Source of the DNA: a virus
Lineage: Duplodnaviria > Caudoviricetes
DNA: 64,000 bases
Virus record (IMG/VR): IMGVR_UViG_3300024259_001623
Direction: 5' to 3' (one strand)
Shown here: piece after piece, positions 7,740 to 58,491 of the stretch
Position numbering within the stretch: position 1 is the stretch's first letter
Layout: every line of letters starts with the position of its first letter
Program-made: the position numbers and the translations under genes
Notes under the pieces: generated by a model
Seen by the model: the letters and a program-made list of their open reading frames with translations, nothing else
Databases searched by the model: none
What the model was told of the DNA's origin: nothing

Positions 7740-8437
7740 TCTGCTTCCCTCAAATATCTAGCAGGAATGTCATTATAAAATATTACTGTACCATGACTTA
7801 ATCCATCCGAACTGTCCACTTCATAATAAAAATCCTCTAAACCAATCTTATGAGCTAATGTCTCTATCAATTCGGCCTCTTCTAAAGGCCCTTCTTTGCC
7901 CACAGTTGGCATGTAACCATCTCTTTTCATCTGTCCGACGTTAATCTCAATCACCTTATCATAATGGTTCCTGGGGGTTCCTGGGTCATCAGAAGTAAAC
8001 ACAGCAGACCCAGTTCCTCTGTTAGAAATCCCTCTAGTCTCATCTCTAGATTCAAGACCATTTCTTATTATATCATCAAACCTCTCTTCGCCAGTTCCAT
8101 GATATAACATAAATCCATCAGAAACGTCATCCCAAAATTCTTTATTAAAATCTCTTTCGTCTACATAACGATAAGCATTTCCGCTGTTCGCTATATTCTG
8201 GATCCAGTCTACAGGCTCTTGAACTTCATAATATCCACCTAATTCAATTATCACATGAGTACCATTAATAATGGCAGATATTATTCTATCACCATCGAAA
8301 TCAATGATCTCGAAGTCTTTAGTTAATCTCTGTATAAGATTTATAACTTCTTCATCGCTATTACTATCTTCAATATAAGATTCGTAATCTGCGATTAAGT
8401 CTGCTTGCTCAATTTGTGCTTGCTTATACCAGTTCAT
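7736..8437 (-). CDS. Putative ADP-ribosyltransferase-fold protein with an MNWYKQAQ leader
   Basis: LYHGT...IIRNGL...AVFTS pattern typical of the ART/Tpt1-like fold. Confidence 0.55.
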   Translation of the reverse strand: MNWYKQAQIEQADLIADYESYIEDSNSDEEVINLIQRLTKDFEIIDFDGDRIISAIINGTHVIIELGGYYEVQEPVDWIQNIANSGNAYRYVDERDFNKEFWDDVSDGFMLYHGTGEERFDDIIRNGLESRDETRGISNRGTGSAVFTSDDPGTPRNHYDKVIEINVGQMKRDGYMPTVGKEGPLEEAELIETLAHKIGLEDFYYEVDSSDGLSHGTVIFYNDIPARYLREAE

Positions 8438-26800: not shown

Positions 26801-27385
26801 CAAGGCCCTCTACGGCGTATCGGCGTGACGTTGGCGTATCCTCATCCGTTCGGGCGAGCTTGAGGATGGAAAGCCGAGCATTGCCGTCAACAAGAATATT
26901 GATAACGTCAAACGTCTTGCCCTTGGCTTTCGGGCCGTTGAGCTTATGCTTGATAACTCTCAGAGCGGAACGGGGGCAAAAAACTTCCGATATGCCCAAC
27001 TTGATATTGGCGACCTTACGCTTCTTTGCCTTCTTTTGCTTTGCCATTGTCTTTTCTCCCAGAAAAAGGTTTTTGTTGTTGTCCTTTGCGACTACCTTTT
27101 ATGATTTCAATTGTTTTATCAGGGAGATGGAACATCAGCATACGGAGCAAAATCTATCCGTATCGTTCCATTAGTTGCCACAACATGTTGATACACTTCC
27201 CCATCTTTTGTGTACCTATCCAAACGTTCAGGATGAAAACCTTTAACCCTAGTACAGAACCAATTAGCAGCCGAAACGCAGCCCATACGTCTTTTTTTCT
27301 TTTTCCACTCTTTAATCGCTTCTTCTATTCTCATACCCTAACCATTTTTGTTTTTCTAATCAGGGAGAATATATAAGATAAGAGA

Positions 27386-27426
27386 GAACGTTCAGCCCCC
27401 TATCGCAAAAGAGAGGGCCGAACGTT
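27386..27426 (-). terminator. Long hairpin terminator after the structured RNA
   Basis: AACGTTCGGCCC...GGGCTGAACGTT followed by a pyrimidine-rich tail. Confidence 0.65.
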
Positions 27427-27512: not shown

Positions 27513-27656
27513 TTTAGGCTCAAGTATTGGACTTGTCAGCGCTCTGCCAACTGAGCTATATCCCGGCTTTGCCGAGATAGCTGGACTCGAACCAGCGACC
27601 TTTGCATATCCAATAACGACTTGCCGCAACAGGACTATGCCTGCCCTTGGCCTAAA
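27513..27656 (-). ncRNA. Circularly permuted tRNA-like RNA (YrlA-type Y RNA topology)
   Basis: Order is T arm, then acceptor stem closed by an AAA loop, then D arm. It is enclosed by the helices TATTGGA/TCCAATA, CAAG/CTTG and TTTAGGC/GCCTAAA. Confidence 0.75.
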
Positions 27657-31431: not shown

Positions 31432-31573
31432 TACCCCTGGCAGGACTCGAACCCGAAACTCCACCATCATACATTTTCTTTATTGGAAGGCAGGGAGGTC
31501 CAGTCTCTAGCTTCCCATAATCATTATGTATTCTGGACATACGGTGTTGTTTTGCCAATTAAACTACAGGGGC
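31432..31573 (-). ncRNA. tRNA-like RNA with an insertion of about 69 nt in the anticodon arm
   Basis: Acceptor GCCCCTG/CAGGGGT, D arm GTTT/AAAC, T loop TTCGAGT, stem CACCGT/ATGGTG enclosing a structured insert. Confidence 0.75.
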
Positions 31574-38642: not shown

Positions 38643-38893
38643 ATGGGCGGGCTGGGAATCGAACCCCGCGACCTTCTTCCGAAAGCATTACGATATTGCC
38701 TTGTCTTACAGGGAATTAAACCCTGGTCTCCTGGCCTAATGCCAGGTATCTTCCATGCAATCTGATACCCTTGGTAAGTCGATCAAACTTTGGTAGAGTA
38801 GTGTTGCACAGTTAGCCACTCATTAGACGATCAGACGCAATAATCTCCTAGGACTACTTTCCGGATGCTGTTATGCCAAATAACTTCCGCCCA
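38643..38893 (-). ncRNA. 251-nt tRNA-like RNA with an insertion of about 170-180 nt
   Basis: Acceptor TGGGCGG/CCGCCCA, D arm GTTAT/ATAAC, stem AGCAT/ATGCT, T loop TTCGATT; starts 6 nt after tRNA-Lys. Confidence 0.7.
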
Positions 38894-38899
38894 GAAAAA

Positions 38900-38972
38900 T
38901 ACGCCCACCAGGACTCGAACCTGGAACCGCCACATTAAAAGTGTGATGCTCTGCCAATTGAGCTATAGGCGC
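38900..38972 (-). tRNA. tRNA-Lys (TTT)
   Basis: Loop CTTTTAA, canonical cloverleaf. Confidence 0.93.
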
Positions 38973-40206
38973 ATAAAGAACAAGAGGGCTTATCTTCCAG
39001 CCAGGATTACAACGTCAGTCAATCTAGCTCTTGTTCTCATTAGGAATTCAACATCAAACTACAGGGATTACCAAGTAGACGGAATAGAGTTGGAAGACGC
39101 ATATGCCTTCTTATACTCAGCCGGCAACTCATCCCAAGGAACGATCTTATGCGTTTGCGTTTGTTCATCGTAATACTTGTACGTCTTTTCAGGGGTCTTT
39201 TTCTCATCTTCATACGAAACGGTGGGTATATTGATAGCTACCATTCCAGCAGGGGCCTCTTGTCCCATCGGACTATTCGGTTCCCTACGAGCAATGATAT
39301 TGGCAGTTTCGCCAAGGCCCATTGAATGAGTCACAGGAGCCTTCATAACCTCTAGGGTTGTAGAAGACGTAAAGGTGAGCCAGGCCCCTTTGCCTGTTTC
39401 AAGATGCGTACCGGCACAACCACCAAGAGCAATAGAGAACAAAACCATAGTGAGCATTGCAGAGCGTTTCATCGTTTTTCTCCTTCTATGAGCGATTGAC
39501 TCATGAGCATTTTACGAGTTATTGCAGGGATATGATCAGCAGTCGCCTTTGTGTAGGTCCAATTTGGCCTTACGACGTTTTTTTCTGTTGGAAGGCTTTC
39601 CGCCCCAGGAATTGGAACGAAGTCGTCCTGACGCCCTTACAACGTCTAATTCGGCCTCTCTGGCCGCTCGACGCAGGGACTTGACCAATTTCTGCTGTTC
39701 CGTAAGTTTCTTTTTCTTAGCCATAATAATCCTTCTTTCGTTTTACTATGACAATTTCCTTCATTTTATCAGGGAAGATATACCTGATCTGAATAGCACC
39801 AATGCCCATTAGCCAATATAAAAACCACCTTATTGGCCCTAATGTCATCTTCATCTACTTCATCAACATTAGTGCCGCACTTTGTACGAGGATAATCGGT
39901 GATCTGCATTTGTTCTATCTCAGTTCTACCGAAACGAGTATGGATTTCGTCGCCGATTTTAATCATTTTGTTATCCCAAGGCTATTTGAGGATCATACCA
40001 ATACGCAGTAAATTCCTTTGCCTTCATGTGTCTGGCCCATAAAGGCTTTTGCCAAACAAACGAAGGTATCCATTCTTCATCTTTTTGACAATAGCTGGCA
40101 GGGACATTCTTGCAATAATGATCCTTATCAATCAAGAAATAACGCCGATCAAGAAGAAAACATCGGCCAGTTTGATTATGTCTAATAACAACATAAACAT
40201 TCGACA

Positions 40207-47629: not shown

Positions 47630-48916
47630 TTACTTTTTGAACTCGATCAAGAAAACCGGATTGACTTGATTAGTCTTATAAACAATCATCTCATTGTTTT
47701 GTACGCCGCTTCTTCCAGCCTTCGCAAAAGTAGAATTGTAACCGCTCTTAGGGAAACTGCGCCCATAAGTAGCTGGGATATATTCTTTACCCATAGCAAC
47801 TTGACATAAGAACATAAAGCAGTTGCTATCTCTTGAGCCGCCCCAATATCCATAAGCATAATTCAAGCTTTTAGTGGATTGGTCAGAAAAATAAACGCCG
47901 TTTCCATACATTCGCCCCGTGCAATGAGAAGCATTAGACGGCGGAATTACAAAACCACCTTTAAGGATAGACAGCAAATTACTAGCCCTAGTTCCATGCC
48001 ATAAATCTCTTACATTGCCAATCTTCTTACCCTTTGCATTGAAGGCATCCAGCATGAAAGCGATTGATACAGAATAGACCCTATGGACCTTCAAAGAATG
48101 ACAAACATGCATTCTATTTCTAGTCTGTCCATACAGTTTCTTGATCCGATCAACAACTTTGCCTTCAGTTACAACATCCATAGCAACATTGAAAAGCTTC
48201 TTTTCGGCGACAACAACCTTCTTGCCTTTGTCATCTTTAGCCCCAGACATTGCAGAAGCATAGGACGATTCAAGACCATCCAAAACATCATTCTGCTTTT
48301 GGACAGCCGCAAGGTCAGGCAAGAACCCCTCAACAGTAAGCTTTCTGCCTACTTCTTGGGGAATAAGCATAAGGTAATCTTCTACATGACGCCTAGTAGA
48401 AGAAAGACCAAACTTTTGCTTTGCTACTGCATCGCCAAGAGAAGCCAAAATCTTTCTGGCTTCATCAATACTGTCTTTGGTAACAATGCCTAACGGTGTC
48501 TTAAAAAGACCGCTATCAACATCAAAAGTAATCTTACCACCAGTTGCATCATAGATATTATGAGCATTTACATCGGTAAGATACTCAATAAGCTTAACAA
48601 CAACTGGATTAGTAGACTGAATCTGTCGCTTGGCAATATCTTTGAGATTGCCTTTAGCAACAACTTTACTAGACGTAGATCCGCCACTATCCAAAGTAGC
48701 TACCGCACGATAGCCTTTATTCTCTTTTTCTCGGGCTTTCTTTTCAGCGTAACGCAGTCCAACACCAGAGAAGGTCTTACTTTGCATACCTTTACCGACT
48801 CTCCCCCATTCGCATAGAACATCGTCATTATCATATAAAGTATATTGCCAAACCTTATTAGAATTCACTTCAATAGAACTCAAAACAAACTTCTTAGTTT
48901 CTACCACGTTGGGCAT
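47630..48916 (-). CDS. WGR-domain poly(ADP-ribose) polymerase-like protein
   Basis: EWGRVG (WGR); LWHGT, GNGVYFSD...KSLNY and NNEMIVY give the H-Y-E triad. Confidence 0.9.
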   Translation of the reverse strand: MPNVVETKKFVLSSIEVNSNKVWQYTLYDNDDVLCEWGRVGKGMQSKTFSGVGLRYAEKKAREKENKGYRAVATLDSGGSTSSKVVAKGNLKDIAKRQIQSTNPVVVKLIEYLTDVNAHNIYDATGGKITFDVDSGLFKTPLGIVTKDSIDEARKILASLGDAVAKQKFGLSSTRRHVEDYLMLIPQEVGRKLTVEGFLPDLAAVQKQNDVLDGLESSYASAMSGAKDDKGKKVVVAEKKLFNVAMDVVTEGKVVDRIKKLYGQTRNRMHVCHSLKVHRVYSVSIAFMLDAFNAKGKKIGNVRDLWHGTRASNLLSILKGGFVIPPSNASHCTGRMYGNGVYFSDQSTKSLNYAYGYWGGSRDSNCFMFLCQVAMGKEYIPATYGRSFPKSGYNSTFAKAGRSGVQNNEMIVYKTNQVNPVFLIEFKK

Positions 48917-52356: not shown

Positions 52357-53448
52357 TTATATGGTACAGTACAAAACTTCTGCTAACTTCTTAACTACTA
52401 CCGGATAACTGAATCTTTGTTTCACGTAAGTGTATGCAGCATCAGCCTTTACAGTCATCTCTTCTCTATGAGAAAAAGCATATCTCATCCTTTCTCTGAT
52501 TTGAGACACAGAGATATAGGGCCAGAGAGCATTTTTAAATTGGAAGATGTTGTCTAGACATGGTATTTTATTATAGCCTTCAGGGACCAATAATAATGAA
52601 GTATCCGTATTACCATACTCAACACAACCAGAATGATCTGGGACAATCGTAGGGACTTTTAAGGCCATTGCCTGTAATGCAGGTAATCCAAAACCTTCTC
52701 CTAAACTTGCAGAAATATAACAATCAAAAGATTTTATATAACTCGCTACGTCATCATCATTTATAGTCGAAACATCTATAATAATTTCAGGAAATTCTCC
52801 AATCTTTTTTATAGATCTTTTTATTCTTTTTATAGTATTTTCGACTTGTACTCTGGTTGTATTTGTAGTTTTGATAGTGAGAGAAACATCATCTTGTTTT
52901 GAGAATTCTTCTAAGAAAGCTGTTATCAATTTCTCATAATTTTTTCTTTGCTTCCATGTTCCCATGAACAGAAAATTAAAACTAGTTTTATGTACAACTA
53001 ATTTTAAAACTTCAGGTGTAAAAACATTAAAGTTTATACAGTGAGGTATATAAAAAATAGGAGTTGTGAGCTTTAGTTTTTTAAACTCTCTATAATTAAA
53101 CATGCTCGGTGTTATAATAGCATCATTGCGATTTAAGTAAATACTCCAATTATCCGGAGGACTTGTAGTTTCAAAAGTCGCATAACCTATTGTCCTACCT
53201 ACACTTCTAACTCTTCTCTGCATTTGAGGGATACAATGATAAAGAGCAATACTCGGATTTTTTACACTTTTTTTAATTAGTGATTTATAGAAATCATGCA
53301 GGTCACTATTTATTTTTTTATGAGAACCTAAGTCTAACGCAGTTATATTAACATCATAACCAGCTTCATGAAGTGCTTGTATATTATTTTTTGCTGCTGT
53401 AGCAAAGCCTGTAGCAGATAAAAAACATATATAGTTGATAGGGATCAT
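52357..53448 (-). CDS. GT-B glycosyltransferase (family 4)
   Basis: FLFMGTWKQRKN; ISASLGEGFGLPALQAMA. Confidence 0.85.
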   Translation of the reverse strand: MIPINYICFLSATGFATAAKNNIQALHEAGYDVNITALDLGSHKKINSDLHDFYKSLIKKSVKNPSIALYHCIPQMQRRVRSVGRTIGYATFETTSPPDNWSIYLNRNDAIITPSMFNYREFKKLKLTTPIFYIPHCINFNVFTPEVLKLVVHKTSFNFLFMGTWKQRKNYEKLITAFLEEFSKQDDVSLTIKTTNTTRVQVENTIKRIKRSIKKIGEFPEIIIDVSTINDDDVASYIKSFDCYISASLGEGFGLPALQAMALKVPTIVPDHSGCVEYGNTDTSLLLVPEGYNKIPCLDNIFQFKNALWPYISVSQIRERMRYAFSHREEMTVKADAAYTYVKQRFSYPVVVKKLAEVLYCTI

Positions 53449-54098
53449 AACACAGTCATTATCGGATTTTTAGTCAACTCATAATTTTCAGATAACACAC
53501 TAGCATTTATAAATTTTATATCGGCAGATTGATAAACACCAGTTCCCCCATGTATATGTCCAAATACATGTAGCTTTGGCTGTATTTCATACATTCTACT
53601 CAAAAGTATAGGACAACCAGCCAACGATCCATCCCAATGTACATAATCTCCATATCCTTTTGGTGGGCCATGAGTAATTACAATATCAGTGTCTAGTGGA
53701 ATAGTTTGATATAAAAGTGCTGCTCTAGTTTTACCAGCATTACCTGTGGGAAAATTAAATGCCCAATTATACCCAAAATGTGGACTCCAGGGACTTCCCC
53801 ATATTTTAATTCCATCAATCTCTACACTATCATTATAAAGATAGTGCCACGAAAGCTCAATAGTCCATTTTTTTGCATACTGGAAAACAAAATCGTGGTT
53901 ACCTGCAATCCCTACTATATTTTTAGCAGGCACAGAAGAAAGCCAACTGGCGAAATGATCTTTCAACCAGTTGGCTTGCCACGCTGCTTCGTGATTCGTA
54001 GTAGGGCAGATATCTCCCGCAATGATTAACAAGTCACATTCAGGGACCTGTACCTCATCCATCTGTCCATGCATATCAGATATACATGCAATTATCAT
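53445..54098 (-). CDS. Calcineurin-like metallophosphoesterase
   Basis: SDMHG, AGD, GNHD, THGPP, GHIH. Confidence 0.9.
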   Translation of the reverse strand: MIIACISDMHGQMDEVQVPECDLLIIAGDICPTTNHEAAWQANWLKDHFASWLSSVPAKNIVGIAGNHDFVFQYAKKWTIELSWHYLYNDSVEIDGIKIWGSPWSPHFGYNWAFNFPTGNAGKTRAALLYQTIPLDTDIVITHGPPKGYGDYVHWDGSLAGCPILLSRMYEIQPKLHVFGHIHGGTGVYQSADIKFINASVLSENYELTKNPIMTVL

Positions 54099-54106
54099 AT
54101 ATTTAC

Positions 54107-55234
54107 TTATCTCTCATCAGCAAGGTAGATAGGACTACGCTGCTTGATGATTAAACGACGCCCCTTAATATACTCTTCTTCCAGTGGCTTGATAACAATG
54201 CCTTCTCTGCGAACATCCGGATAAAGCATAGAATACCCATTAGAGGCTTGCTGTATCGTTACACCCTTCGGGAACAGATCAGTCTCGTGAGGATTCTTAG
54301 ACAGCAACCAATCTTCTAATGTTATATTATAGCCAAGAGTAGGAACAAGTATCAATCCTGCCTTCTTGCCAAACACCTTATTAATGTAATCAATAAAGAT
54401 CGGTGTATTAACCCAAAGACCATTGATTTTAAGGTCAAACAGTCTCACCGTATTCTCTGGGAATTTATAGATATTTTTTTGGACTTTCGGACCAAGCATC
54501 TCTCCATAAACAGTAACGCTTTTGCCTGGATGTTCATCGGCAATTGCATTAGCAAAATCCAAAATACCTTCTCTAATAGCTACTTGCCACCAAGGATTAG
54601 TAGACTTATCCTCAGTTTCAATAGTATGTCTACGAGAGTTAACGTACTCAGTTCTATCAACTCCAATAGTGACAGAGAAATTAGACCCTTCTACTTTCTC
54701 AGAAATCCAGCAAGGTCTAGTCATTAGTGCTTCCACTAGATGCTTATACCTTTCTGCACCTTCAATATCATAGATAGTAAGATCTTCAGGTAAAGTAGTA
54801 AGTTTAGTCTGATTCCCCCCCATCATGCTAAACTGAACAGGTGGCTCATATTTCTCTACTCCAAAATACTGAGTTAACTGTTCGGTGGTAAAAGGCTCAT
54901 CAATCTCGGTAGGATCAGGCTTCTCAACATCCTCGCCCAGCATATCCAGCTTACCTACAATGCCTTGACTAATCTCATCCCTTAGACGGACAGTTTTGAC
55001 ACGGTTTTTCTTACTGCCGGATAATTTTCCCAGTAATCCCATCTTCTCAGAAACCCAATCAGGAAGCAGAGAATCGATAGGGAAGTAGATAACCTCTTCA
55101 CCGGAAGTATAAACACCTTTAGGAATAACAAATTGAAATTCCATACCATCCAGTTTAGCCAGTTCAAGTCTATCTGCATTAGGATGCGGATATACTTTCT
55201 CTATAGTCTCAATTGTTACTCCGAAAAATGCCAT
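54107..55234 (-). CDS. RNA ligase, DRB0094/Rnl2-like with an N-terminal OB fold
   Basis: HPNADRLEL; SEKVEGSN; YGEMLG; REGIVIK. Confidence 0.85.
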   Translation of the reverse strand: MAFFGVTIETIEKVYPHPNADRLELAKLDGMEFQFVIPKGVYTSGEEVIYFPIDSLLPDWVSEKMGLLGKLSGSKKNRVKTVRLRDEISQGIVGKLDMLGEDVEKPDPTEIDEPFTTEQLTQYFGVEKYEPPVQFSMMGGNQTKLTTLPEDLTIYDIEGAERYKHLVEALMTRPCWISEKVEGSNFSVTIGVDRTEYVNSRRHTIETEDKSTNPWWQVAIREGILDFANAIADEHPGKSVTVYGEMLGPKVQKNIYKFPENTVRLFDLKINGLWVNTPIFIDYINKVFGKKAGLILVPTLGYNITLEDWLLSKNPHETDLFPKGVTIQQASNGYSMLYPDVRREGIVIKPLEEEYIKGRRLIIKQRSPIYLADER

Positions 55235-56479: not shown

Positions 56480-57328
56480 CTAAAATGCAACACAATAATC
56501 TGTTTTTTCGAGGAATTTTTTCAATTTACGTAAACCGTTTTCCTCATGGTGTTTAGCCCACGGCCTGCTTACTCCAAGCTCTTTACCAACATCAGAATAA
56601 GTGGGTTTCTTTCCATCAAAAAAGTATCTCATTTCAACAGCGACTCTTTCTTGGTAAGTTAGTCCAGCAGAATTATCTTTTAATGCTGTTCTAATAACAT
56701 CTATTAACTTACTATAATCGGTGGATAGATCTTCTACATCTTCTCCATCTTCAGTGTCATAAGAGACAGGGAACTTTTCTTCTCTCTCTTGTTTCTTCTT
56801 AATTTCTCCGGCAAAAGTTTTTATAATAGACCAAGTTGCATAAGTCGAAAACTTATTGCCTCTAGAAATATCGAATGTCTTAATAGCTCTCAGTAATGCT
56901 TCATTACCGACAGATACCATATCTTCATAATCTAAACCACTCTTCAAAAATCTCTTTGTTGTATTTATGACTAGTGCTAGATTATATTCTACTAACTTCT
57001 TTTGCATTGCTAATACAACTTTATACCAATGCATTATCTCTTGTTTAGCTGTATCCGTGAGTCCATCAGGATATGACTCTTTTACCTGAGAAATTCTTTT
57101 TCGCGCTAAATTATAACGCAAAAATACATTCCGTTCTTCTTCCCGACTTAATACAACAATATTTTTAGACGTTCTAACAGGAAGATCACAATTGAAAAAC
57201 CAAGATACATCCACATCCTCTGGAAGGTCTTGGTTCTCAATGCGTTCAGAAATTGTAGAATCCTCAAAATCAGGATGGTCTACGTATCTATTCTGTTCTA
57301 AAATATTCTTTAAGTCTTCTAGTTCCAT
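56480..57328 (-). CDS. Sigma-70 family RNA polymerase sigma factor
   Basis: Region 2 NLALV...EDMVSVGNEALLRAIKTFDISRGNKFSTYATW; region 4 TYSDVGKELGVSR. Confidence 0.9.
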   Translation of the reverse strand: MELEDLKNILEQNRYVDHPDFEDSTISERIENQDLPEDVDVSWFFNCDLPVRTSKNIVVLSREEERNVFLRYNLARKRISQVKESYPDGLTDTAKQEIMHWYKVVLAMQKKLVEYNLALVINTTKRFLKSGLDYEDMVSVGNEALLRAIKTFDISRGNKFSTYATWSIIKTFAGEIKKKQEREEKFPVSYDTEDGEDVEDLSTDYSKLIDVIRTALKDNSAGLTYQERVAVEMRYFFDGKKPTYSDVGKELGVSRPWAKHHEENGLRKLKKFLEKTDYCVAF

Positions 57329-58491
57329 TACTTCTCTTCTTCAAAACGATTCATAGCAGTAGAAGGCTCAAAACCTTCCAATACATTGCCAGTAGGTCTA
57401 AACAATTCGAACAAACTATTACGAAGTTTAGACTTAGACCCAGTTCGTATAGTCTCTAAAAAATCTCGTTTTCTACAGGGAAAAACGAATCTTTTAACCC
57501 TTGGGTCGATAGTATTGTTTGGATTCTGCAAATACATTCCTAACTCTTTATCACCCAACTCTTTAGTAGATAGATAAACCTCTTCTACCTCAGTTAAAAG
57601 ATCGTCCAGCTTCCCATTCAGTATAGATTCTATAGCATCAAAATCTTTACGAAATTCCTCTGGCAAATCTTTTTTCGCATTTTCAAGATCATCTAAGTTT
57701 CTCATCATGTCCCAGATAACCAATGGAGTGCAATTAGAAACTAAGCGATGCAACCTGCAATACTCATCACCCTTGATCTTGATACGATAACCATTAGTAA
57801 ACCGTACAACGAAACCCTCTTCATTATACGACAACGTTTTGCAAACTCCCAACATATCATCCAAAGAATCAAAATGAGCAGTTTCAGTCAAACCCATTCC
57901 AGTCTCTCTACTGGTGGCTTCCAATATCTCTCTTTGCAATTCATGACCAGTATCTACAAAGTACCCCCCCAGTAAAACTAATCCCTCAAAATCATAAGTT
58001 ACAACAATGCGATTCTGAGTATAGATTATTTCCACTAAATAAGTAGCATTCTCATGCATATAATCAAGCATGTAGCTCTGTAAATTCTTCTCAGCCCAAA
58101 CAGCTTGATCAGAAGCAAAAGAACCACGAGTAGCTACATTCCATTTTCCATTCCAAAAATAAACGATCCCTAAAGATCCATCCATCTTCAAAGTAGTAGA
58201 AAAACCCAAATCAGGTAGGTCTTCTTCTACCTCTCCATAATTGAAGAACTTGGGAAAAGGAGCAGCGACTACCTTCTTTTGAGAAGGGCAAAGGATTAAA
58301 CCTCTGGCCACAAGAGTAAAAATGTTCCAATGCTTATCATAAGTAGCAGTAGCACTATAATTGAAAAGCTCTAAATCATCTTTAGTTTGAACGTTGATGT
58401 ATCCAGCCTCTACCTCTTCCTGAAGACCTTTATACAAGTCATCGAACGGAAGAGTTAAAGCAGGATGTATGTGATATTCTATTTTTTCCAT
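57328..58491 (-). CDS. T4 Rnl1-like RNA ligase
   Basis: ARGLIL...PFPKFFN; KMDGSLG; EGFVV. Confidence 0.9.
   Translation of the reverse strand: MEKIEYHIHPALTLPFDDLYKGLQEEVEAGYINVQTKDDLELFNYSATATYDKHWNIFTLVARGLILCPSQKKVVAAPFPKFFNYGEVEEDLPDLGFSTTLKMDGSLGIVYFWNGKWNVATRGSFASDQAVWAEKNLQSYMLDYMHENATYLVEIIYTQNRIVVTYDFEGLVLLGGYFVDTGHELQREILEATSRETGMGLTETAHFDSLDDMLGVCKTLSYNEEGFVVRFTNGYRIKIKGDEYCRLHRLVSNCTPLVIWDMMRNLDDLENAKKDLPEEFRKDFDAIESILNGKLDDLLTEVEEVYLSTKELGDKELGMYLQNPNNTIDPRVKRFVFPCRKRDFLETIRTGSKSKLRNSLFELFRPTGNVLEGFEPSTAMNRFEEEK

Follow-up and report, generated by a model that had tools for sequence, protein, structure and literature searches.

The conservation of Y RNAs and Ro60 extends from bacteria to humans, and we know of no one who has established what the transfer RNA (tRNA)-like module of bacterial Y RNAs does. 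The bacterial class YrlA was described in 2014 and occurs also in mycobacteriophages (Chen et al., 2014; PMC4201824). Rsr/Ro60 is bound by YrlA, the middle domain of which mimics an L-shaped tRNA and is modified by TruB and DusA, and Y RNAs tether Ro60 to PNPase or gate the Ro60 cavity (PMC4201824; 10.1101/312249). Phage Ro60 systems have recently been tied to the hijacking of host PNPase (PMC12135203) and to the evasion of defence (PMC11482910): one phage Ro60 forms complexes with Y-like RNAs of the phage and with the PNPase of the host (PMC12135203), and phage Bas63 has a Ro60-like protein by which the Ppl defence is countered (PMC11482910). In jumbo phages TROVE occurs together with RNA repair enzymes (PMC7824862). 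Here a tRNA-like RNA element with the YrlA arrangement is described at positions 27513-27656, minus strand, of IMG/VR record IMGVR_UViG_3300024259_001623, a stretch of 64,000 nucleotides (nt) from a virus of the Caudoviricetes that was analysed as a whole and is called the window below.

Judged by sequence comparison, the element is a dispersed paralog of the Ro60-linked Y RNAs of its own phage, and is under structural constraint; the evidence is ~84% identity of the core, compensatory changes in the stems and covariation of the 15:48 pair. We favour, with some reserve, the reading that it is an expressed YrlA-class Y RNA that has kept its role with the phage Ro60 particle. Compared with Yrl1 and Yrl2 of Thermus phage phiLo, it is likewise a phage-encoded Y-like RNA, and for the phiLo RNAs Ro60 binding and assembly with PNPase were shown; Yrl1 and Yrl2 differ in being stem-bulge-stem RNAs with CGAA that lie upstream of Ro60, with no tRNA-like module or dispersed copy reported (PMC12135203).

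Anatomy and family of the element

The original prediction, which was made from the sequence letters alone, had described a T arm, a 9-base-pair (bp) acceptor stem sealed by AAA and carrying G3-U70, and a full D arm, with the anticodon arm replaced by long helices. All of these were located on the minus strand, the long helices as an 11-bp terminal stem and a 7-bp second stem (Table 1). In tRNA numbering, the acceptor pairs are 1-72 C-G, 2-71 G-C, 3-70 G.U, 4-69 G-C, 5-68 A-U, 6-67 U-A and 7-66 A-U, followed by two extra pairs and the sealing loop. A short linker ending in AGGTC precedes the T arm, and 9 nt separate the D arm from TCCAATA. Nucleotides U8, A14, G15, G18, G19, C48, T54, T55 and C56 are in place as in tRNAs, and G15 is matched with C48 (27597) as a Levitt pair. 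The T-loop word GGTTCGADTCC was counted 7 times in the window (0.05 expected), and the tRNA-like pattern at 27513-27656 is beyond chance.

The minimum free energy (MFE) fold of the element holds all four helices (z = -2.05 against shuffles). Ensemble pair probabilities were 0.86-1.0 for the outer stem (0.40-0.46 for its outermost pair), ~1.0 for the acceptor hairpin, 0.92 for the T stem, 0.57 for the D stem and ~0.4 for the second stem. An inner closing helix, GGCAAG/CTTGAGCC, had an ensemble probability of ~0; it was dropped as a fold and kept as a motif position only. GGGCCGAA (27415-27422, plus strand, inside a downstream hairpin) was tried as a Y RNA handle and discarded, its count of 2 against 1.9 expected being at chance level.

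Table 1. Features of the element and its flanks, in window coordinates and in the order of the minus strand.
Feature	Position	Strand	Sequence or structure	Basis
Promoter-like unit	27768-27762 and 27744-27735	minus	TCCCTGA, 17-nt spacer, TAATAAGATG; ~105 nt upstream of the element	
5' leader hairpin with U-rich run	27731-27675; run 27674-27666	minus	GCAAGGGC ... GCCCTTGC, then U-rich run	Sequence; MFE fold of 27735-27380
Outer stem, 5' strand	27656-27646	minus	TTTAGGCCAAG; pairs with 27524-27513	
5'-side internal loop	27645-27616	minus	30 nt, with small hairpin GCAGG/CCTGT	Rfam alignment
GGCAAG	27625-27620	minus	Within the 5'-side internal loop	Rfam model aligns the GNCGAA Ro60 motif here
Second stem, 5' strand	27615-27609	minus	TATTGGA; 7 perfect pairs with TCCAATA (27531-27525)	Matches the second helix of Rfam YrlA
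T arm	27596-27580	minus	GCTGG / TTCGAGT / CCAGC, 5-bp stem	Sequence; Rfam alignment
Acceptor-like hairpin	27579-27559	minus	9 bp, loop AAA, G3.U70	Sequence; module parsing
U8, A9 and D arm	27558-27541; D arm proper 27556-27541	minus	GCTC / AGTTGGCA / GAGC, with G15, G18 and G19	
Outer stem, 3' strand	27524-27513	minus	CTTGAGCCTAAA, A bulged at 27520; 11 bp in all	
Three downstream hairpins	27508-27492, 27461-27443 and 27426-27387	minus		Sequence; fold of 27735-27380

YrlA (RF02553) was the only meaningful match among 4227 Rfam families. All 114 model positions were aligned, at 38.8 bits (E 6.6e-7 locally, 5e-5 over the whole window). The Rfam tRNA model gave no hit at the element at E<=10. ARAGORN called six ordinary tRNAs in the window and called neither a tRNA nor a transfer-messenger RNA (tmRNA) at 27513-27656. 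Within the tmRNA clan the best match at the element was beta_tmRNA, partial, at 12.9 bits. A two-piece (permuted) tmRNA, for which a tag frame and pseudoknots would be expected, was rejected on the lack of an ARAGORN tmRNA call and on this partial score.

The order of the halves, 3' before 5' with a short linker between them, resembles that of the permuted tRNA genes of Cyanidioschyzon (10.1101/312249). A true circularly permuted tRNA gene, the transcript of which would be circularised and reopened to a normal tRNA, is nevertheless extremely improbable at this locus. No more than 2 pairs can be made between positions 27-31 and 39-43, and a 7-nt anticodon loop is lacking; the ends form a rod of 11 bp and 7 bp, not a bulge-helix-bulge; neither ARAGORN nor the Rfam tRNA model called the element; and no splicing endonuclease pathway is known from bacteria or phages (10.1101/312249).

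Ro60 and a Y RNA array in the same phage population

The window holds no Ro60/TROVE gene, as had been noted in the original prediction: tblastn with three phage TROVE proteins gave a best E of 0.2, and a Pfam scan of ten window open reading frames (ORFs), every ORF over 300 amino acids (aa) among them, found no TROVE domain. Contigs were then walked by exact-protein look-up. One look-up at the right end of the window led to contig L127, and a second from the far end of L127 led to L147, L149 and L150. The last 10.75 kb of the window are shared with L127 (99.8% identity), and L147 and L149 overlap L127 at 99.96-100% identity. A Ro60 gene, proposed originally as something to be sought elsewhere in the phage or its host, was found on L147 and L149 ~12.4 kb past the end of the window, as a 556-aa ORF with TROVE (E 1e-34) and vWA_Ro60 (E 6e-47) domains. 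By coordinate mapping it lies at ~76384-78054 of the extended sequence, on the minus strand, ~48.7 kb from the element and in the same orientation. The source phage is apparently an uncultured marine phage of several hundred kb.

The 1.4 kb directly upstream of Ro60 (L149:4290-5600; ~78.1-79.4 kb extended, minus strand) contain seven Y RNA units. The units start with GGG(T/C)CGAA, followed ~10 nt on by TTATC, and end in AACTT(A/G)CCT-like or AATCCGAT strands. Three of the seven have a permuted tRNA module, with partial Rfam YrlA hits, and the other four are minimal stem-loop-stem units.

The closest relative of the window element is unit 2 of this array (L149:5322-5460), to which its 56-nt core is ~84% identical. 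The acceptor hairpin is TATATCGGC-AAA-GCCGGTATA in unit 2 and TATCTCGGC-AAA-GCCGGGATA in the window, with an identical loop and with G3.U70 in both. Compensatory changes separate the two copies: from the window to unit 2, pair 4-69 changes from G-C to U-A and pair 51-63 from U-A to A-U. The Levitt pair is G15:C48 in the window and A15:U48 in array units 1 and 2. The upstream context is alike, with a hairpin and U-run followed by an A-rich leader. The array units keep GGG(T/C)CGAA, TTATC and a 3' AACTTACCT strand round a bulged internal loop, whereas the window copy has lost those words. The array, Ro60 and the next gene share one 3.7-kb interval between two copies of the promoter-like motif TCCCTGA, whereas the window copy stands alone. 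Most probably one of the tRNA-module Y RNAs upstream of Ro60 was duplicated, and the copy now lies ~49 kb away in a promoter-to-terminator slot of its own.

Two further RNAs are interleaved in the array: a tRNA-like gene with a 31-nt anticodon-loop insertion (L149:4364-4460), and an RNA of ~170 nt that is rod-like and closed by a long inverted repeat (~L149:4466-4632).

Relatives and covariation

In blastn searches of phage genomes, 60 nt of the element (27541-27600) matched 13 records of cluster-L mycobacteriophages at 82-83%. Gene context was inspected in one cluster-L record, that of Kingsolomon (MF140413.1), where the match, at ~42.4 kb, is unannotated and lies ~145 nt downstream of a 'Ro-like RNA binding protein' gene on the same strand. 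The Kingsolomon RNA shares with the window element 83% identity over 60 nt, the TCGGC-NNN-GCCGG acceptor core with G3.U70, the 9-bp hairpin and a GCAA-type word. It differs in its position beside the Ro gene, in closing-stem sequences that are unrelated, and in a host and GC content that are entirely different. Together the Rfam match, the Ro60-linked paralogs and this Ro-adjacent mycobacteriophage match bear out the first option of the original prediction, a phage Y-like RNA of YrlA topology, and the element is very probably homologous to YrlA.

IMG/VR was scanned with a degenerate pattern, which returned mostly tandem tRNAs; modules with a hairpin between the T and D arms were kept. TROVE was encoded by 6 of the 10 contigs with a hairpin-closed module and by none of 5 large contigs with tandem tRNAs only. 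TROVE-adjacent YrlA hits sometimes form arrays of two or three.

Covariation was scored across 17 modules. Position pair 15:48 was C-G in 11, U-A in 4, U-G in 1 and other in 1, and was thus paired in 94% as against 75% in shuffles, with 0 of 500 shuffles as high; the pair had played no part in module selection. It was from the same 15:48 covariation that Chen et al. argued for a tRNA fold (PMC4201824). All 7 scored acceptor pairs show double-sided changes, and the T-stem pairs covary. The three core helices were 98.8% paired and 12 of 16 pairs had changed on both sides, figures that are partly circular since the modules were selected for pairing.

Closed modules were also found in phages lacking TROVE. 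The complete IMG/VR phage genomes G005 and G007 carry stem-closed permuted modules and no TROVE gene. Of the loci noted in complete IMG/VR phage genomes with terminal repeats and no TROVE gene, L012 (contig of 144.8 kb) has a permuted module closed by a 9-bp long-range stem with AGCAAA in its 5' strand, a word that resembles the GCAA-type word of the window element, and L074 (107 kb) has modules with closed acceptor hairpins of 7 bp and 8 bp.

Other searches returned little. An exact 43-mer of the element had no hit in IMG/VR, where the neighbouring 204-aa protein had no relative and the Rnl2-like ligase of the window had a single one, 25% identical. No near match to 20 kb of the window was found among INPHARED phages. 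The pattern TCGGC-NNN-GCCGG gave no hit in the sets of viral, metagenome and genome contigs, although it does match the loci analysed here. Contigs with a 78%-identical homolog of the 204-aa neighbour have a 1.1-kb ORF-free gap after that gene. Among sequencing runs, a 501-nt stretch was found in seawater DNA runs only, and for a 221-nt stretch no RNA runs were listed.

The promoter-like slot

The window has 67 copies of TCCCTGA where 7 would be expected. Of these copies 64 are on the minus strand, the majority of them in a region of small genes (18-36 kb), and alignment of the copies gave the consensus TCCCTGA..AAAT.G.TAAAGGTAG. In 39 of the 64 minus-strand cases the ATG of an ORF of at least 40 aa follows within 80 nt, the commonest distance being ~40 nt, and those ATGs are preceded by an AAAGGA-like ribosome site. 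Beyond the window the motif was found at L149:4194-4200 and 7937-7943. The unit probably serves a phage-specific transcription programme as its promoter. At 56480-57328 there is a sigma-70-like gene.

The leader hairpin and U-run between this unit and the element look like a terminator or attenuator in the predicted fold, and a comparable hairpin with U-run stands before the first tRNA-module unit of the Ro60 array. Downstream, the last of the three hairpins (27426-27387) is terminator-like, with a pyrimidine-rich run behind it; the region ends at 27383 and the next TCCCTGA is at 27366-27360. The slot of ~400 nt between the two TCCCTGA motifs is without a credible ORF and holds structured RNA only. 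Transcription of the element would start from this unit.

Docking words and the link to Ro60

Under the favoured reading, the terminal stem and the GGCAAG internal loop would dock on the phage Ro60 ring, the tRNA-like module would offer a tRNA-shaped surface to a second factor such as host PNPase or tRNA-handling enzymes, and the element would thereby tune the RNA surveillance and repair machinery of the phage during infection. For docking on Ro60 taken by itself we regard the chances as evenly balanced. The element resembles YrlA in the order of T arm, loop-closed acceptor and D arm, in its tertiary partners, 15:48 included, in its end-to-end model alignment, in 5' and 3' ends that close into a long stem with a 5'-side internal loop, and in the presence of Ro60 in the same genome. 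With the outer stem formed, GGCAAG sits in the 5'-side internal loop between two stems; such an arrangement of stem, 5'-side internal loop and stem has been described for Y RNAs (PMC12135203). The spacing from GGCAAG to the RUAY/YUAY position equals that in the Ro60-array units.

A number of observations weigh against a Y RNA that still works with Ro60. The first group concerns the docking words. In a YrlA RNA the motif GNCGAAN0-1G is expected near the 5' end, and the CGAA motif is tied to Ro60 binding in the literature. There is no CGAA on the RNA strand of the element, which has GGCAAG at the aligned position, not GNCGAA, and GGCCAAG in the outer stem. The exact GNCGAA/CGAA is kept in all seven Ro60-proximal units, and the TTATC of all seven is ATATG in the window element. 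The second group concerns position. The operational definition of Chen et al. places a YrlA RNA within ~4 kb of a Ro60/TROVE gene and on the same strand (PMC4201824); the element is on the same strand as Ro60, ~48.7 kb away. In the 5 TROVE-positive IMG/VR contigs that were searched with the Rfam model, the YrlA hits are without exception upstream of TROVE, at less than 1 kb and on its strand. The link from the window to Ro60 is itself made through contigs of one homogeneous seawater population at 99.8-100% identity, not through one proven molecule. The third group concerns score and conservation. The 38.8 bits are below the Rfam gathering score of 69, and tandem tRNAs also give sub-threshold YrlA hits, 9 of 14 control genomes being positive in the same search. 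No permuted module was found in the flanks of the 57-60%-identical homologs of the 204-aa neighbour. Covariation, by which the original prediction had proposed to judge the element, held for the core helices and 15:48 and gave nothing for the terminal stems, since nine metagenome contigs of the same population are 100% identical over 731 nt.

Some of these points lose weight when other phage RNAs are considered. All phage examples examined, Ro60-adjacent ones included, score 24-40 bits with Rfam YrlA; the model therefore under-scores phage YrlA, and the sub-threshold score of the element is uninformative by itself. As controls also give sub-threshold hits, it is the closed hairpin and the context that count. 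In the Ro-adjacent RNA of Kingsolomon the loop in question reads AGCAAT (AGCAAU), also without CGAA, and several TROVE-adjacent IMG/VR modules have CGGAT or CGGTTAC in place of CGAA. Loss of the exact word is thus not proof of lost binding, and the docking motif may be looser in phages, to go by these sequences.

Further differences from described YrlA RNAs are an acceptor stem of 9 bp, as against 6 in Salmonella and 7 in M. smegmatis, and, in the 5' strand, 30 inserted nt that include a small hairpin. The element is best filed as a variant derived from the YrlA family rather than a certified member, because gathering score, exact motif and Ro60 proximity all speak otherwise.

The remodelled stem bears on the main rival explanation, that the duplicated Y RNA has lost its Ro60 handle and acts as a Ro60-independent tRNA mimic, a decoy or scaffold for proteins that bind the elbow or acceptor. 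Its targets could be host tRNA-targeting defence nucleases, tRNA-modifying enzymes, RNase P or phage RNA-repair enzymes. The 5' strand of the outer stem, TAGGCCAAG, resembles TGGGTCGAA minus one G, and two G have been added on the partner side; where the parent units have a bulged internal loop, the window copy now has a near-perfect helix of 11 bp. CGAA and TTATC were altered while the tRNA-like core was kept with compensatory changes, and the copy stands in a promoter-like slot of its own, well away from the Ro60 operon. G005 and G007 also carry stem-closed modules without TROVE, and other tRNA-shaped RNAs without an anticodon abound in the window, as do RNA ligases. We nevertheless consider this explanation unlikely: Kingsolomon and several TROVE-adjacent RNAs are also without exact CGAA, Ro60 is present in the same phage, and no alternative protein partner is linked to the element; its neighbour genes are without a Pfam family, and it is not conserved beside the homologs of those genes.

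The altered words could also mark a non-functional leftover, a decaying duplicate of a Y RNA gene without a role. The degraded Ro60-motif words would fit decay, as would the protein-level relatives that lack the element near the homologous neighbour gene. This is very improbable, as the core helices are intact and their differences from the paralog compensatory, G15:C48 and the G18G19/T-loop partners are kept, the terminal stem is stronger than in the parent units, and a promoter-like unit and a terminator-like hairpin flank the element.

The acceptor hairpin and RNase P

A two-piece tRNA-like RNA would result if RNase P opened the AAA loop, the 3' end were trimmed and CCA were added. Such processing is compatible with docking on Ro60 and with independence from it. 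[quoted passage not shown] Most YrlA stems were, on the other side, judged poor RNase P substrates (10.1101/312249). In the window the stem runs 2 bp past 1-72 and is closed by only 3 nt, and CCA is not encoded. We consider the two-piece RNA quite improbable.

G3.U70 is the identity element of alanyl-tRNA synthetase (AlaRS), and a two-piece RNA carrying it might be charged by that enzyme. In the element it is flanked by G2-C71 and G4-C69. The pair is present in the window, unit 2 and Kingsolomon, and is kept between these loci; across the modules it was found in 4 of 17 only and is not a family feature.

Other RNA features of the window

The window has an RNA end-healing and sealing toolkit on the minus strand (47630-48916, 53445-55234 and 57328-58491), in the same phage as Ro60. 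Besides a PARP-like protein (WGR, regulatory and catalytic domains), it comprises two ligases, one Rnl2-like and bearing an OB domain, the other an RNA ligase of the Rnl1 type, and a metallophosphatase, which is listed for the homologous gene in L127. Beyond the window, at L149:596-3092, an RNA ligase gene is apparently split, with Pfam intein-splicing domains on two ORFs and another gene between them.

Two other RNAs on the minus strand are tRNA-shaped in part. At 31432-31573 a tRNA-shaped gene (Rfam tRNA, 36 bits) has normal acceptor, D and T arms; ~70 nt replace its 7-nt anticodon loop, and a TCCCTGA lies 48 nt upstream. At 38643-38891, directly downstream of tRNA-Lys (38899-38973), an RNA of ~250 nt has ends GGGCGG.../...CCGCCCA that pair acceptor-like, the T arm GGTTCGATTCC beside the paired ends and a second, internal T-arm-like hairpin CAGGGTTTAATTCCCTG. 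In size and layout it is like a tmRNA, yet no call was made by ARAGORN or Rfam.

Implications

The advance is a modest one: the RNA class itself has been known since 2014, phages included, and what is new is the isolated position and the remodelled docking motif of an unannotated example. A bolder account can be given, in which a Y RNA paralog has escaped from Ro60 to become either a decoy tRNA with its own promoter, directed against host tRNA-targeting defences, or an acceptor-arm RNA that is opened by RNase P, CCA-added and chargeable by AlaRS through G3.U70. We hold this to be rather unlikely. If it were true, the conversion of a Y RNA into a free-standing tRNA mimic would be documented, with a link to the stem-closed permuted modules in complete phage genomes that are without Ro60.

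Seven Ro60-linked Y RNAs and one stray copy make up a natural experiment, in which the tRNA mimic was kept and the docking words were altered. A comparison of the stray and array copies for Ro60 binding and for partners would assign roles to the parts of the RNA. If the stray copy binds Ro60, the accepted docking motif would be widened; if it does not, it would be a Y RNA on its way to becoming an independent tRNA decoy.

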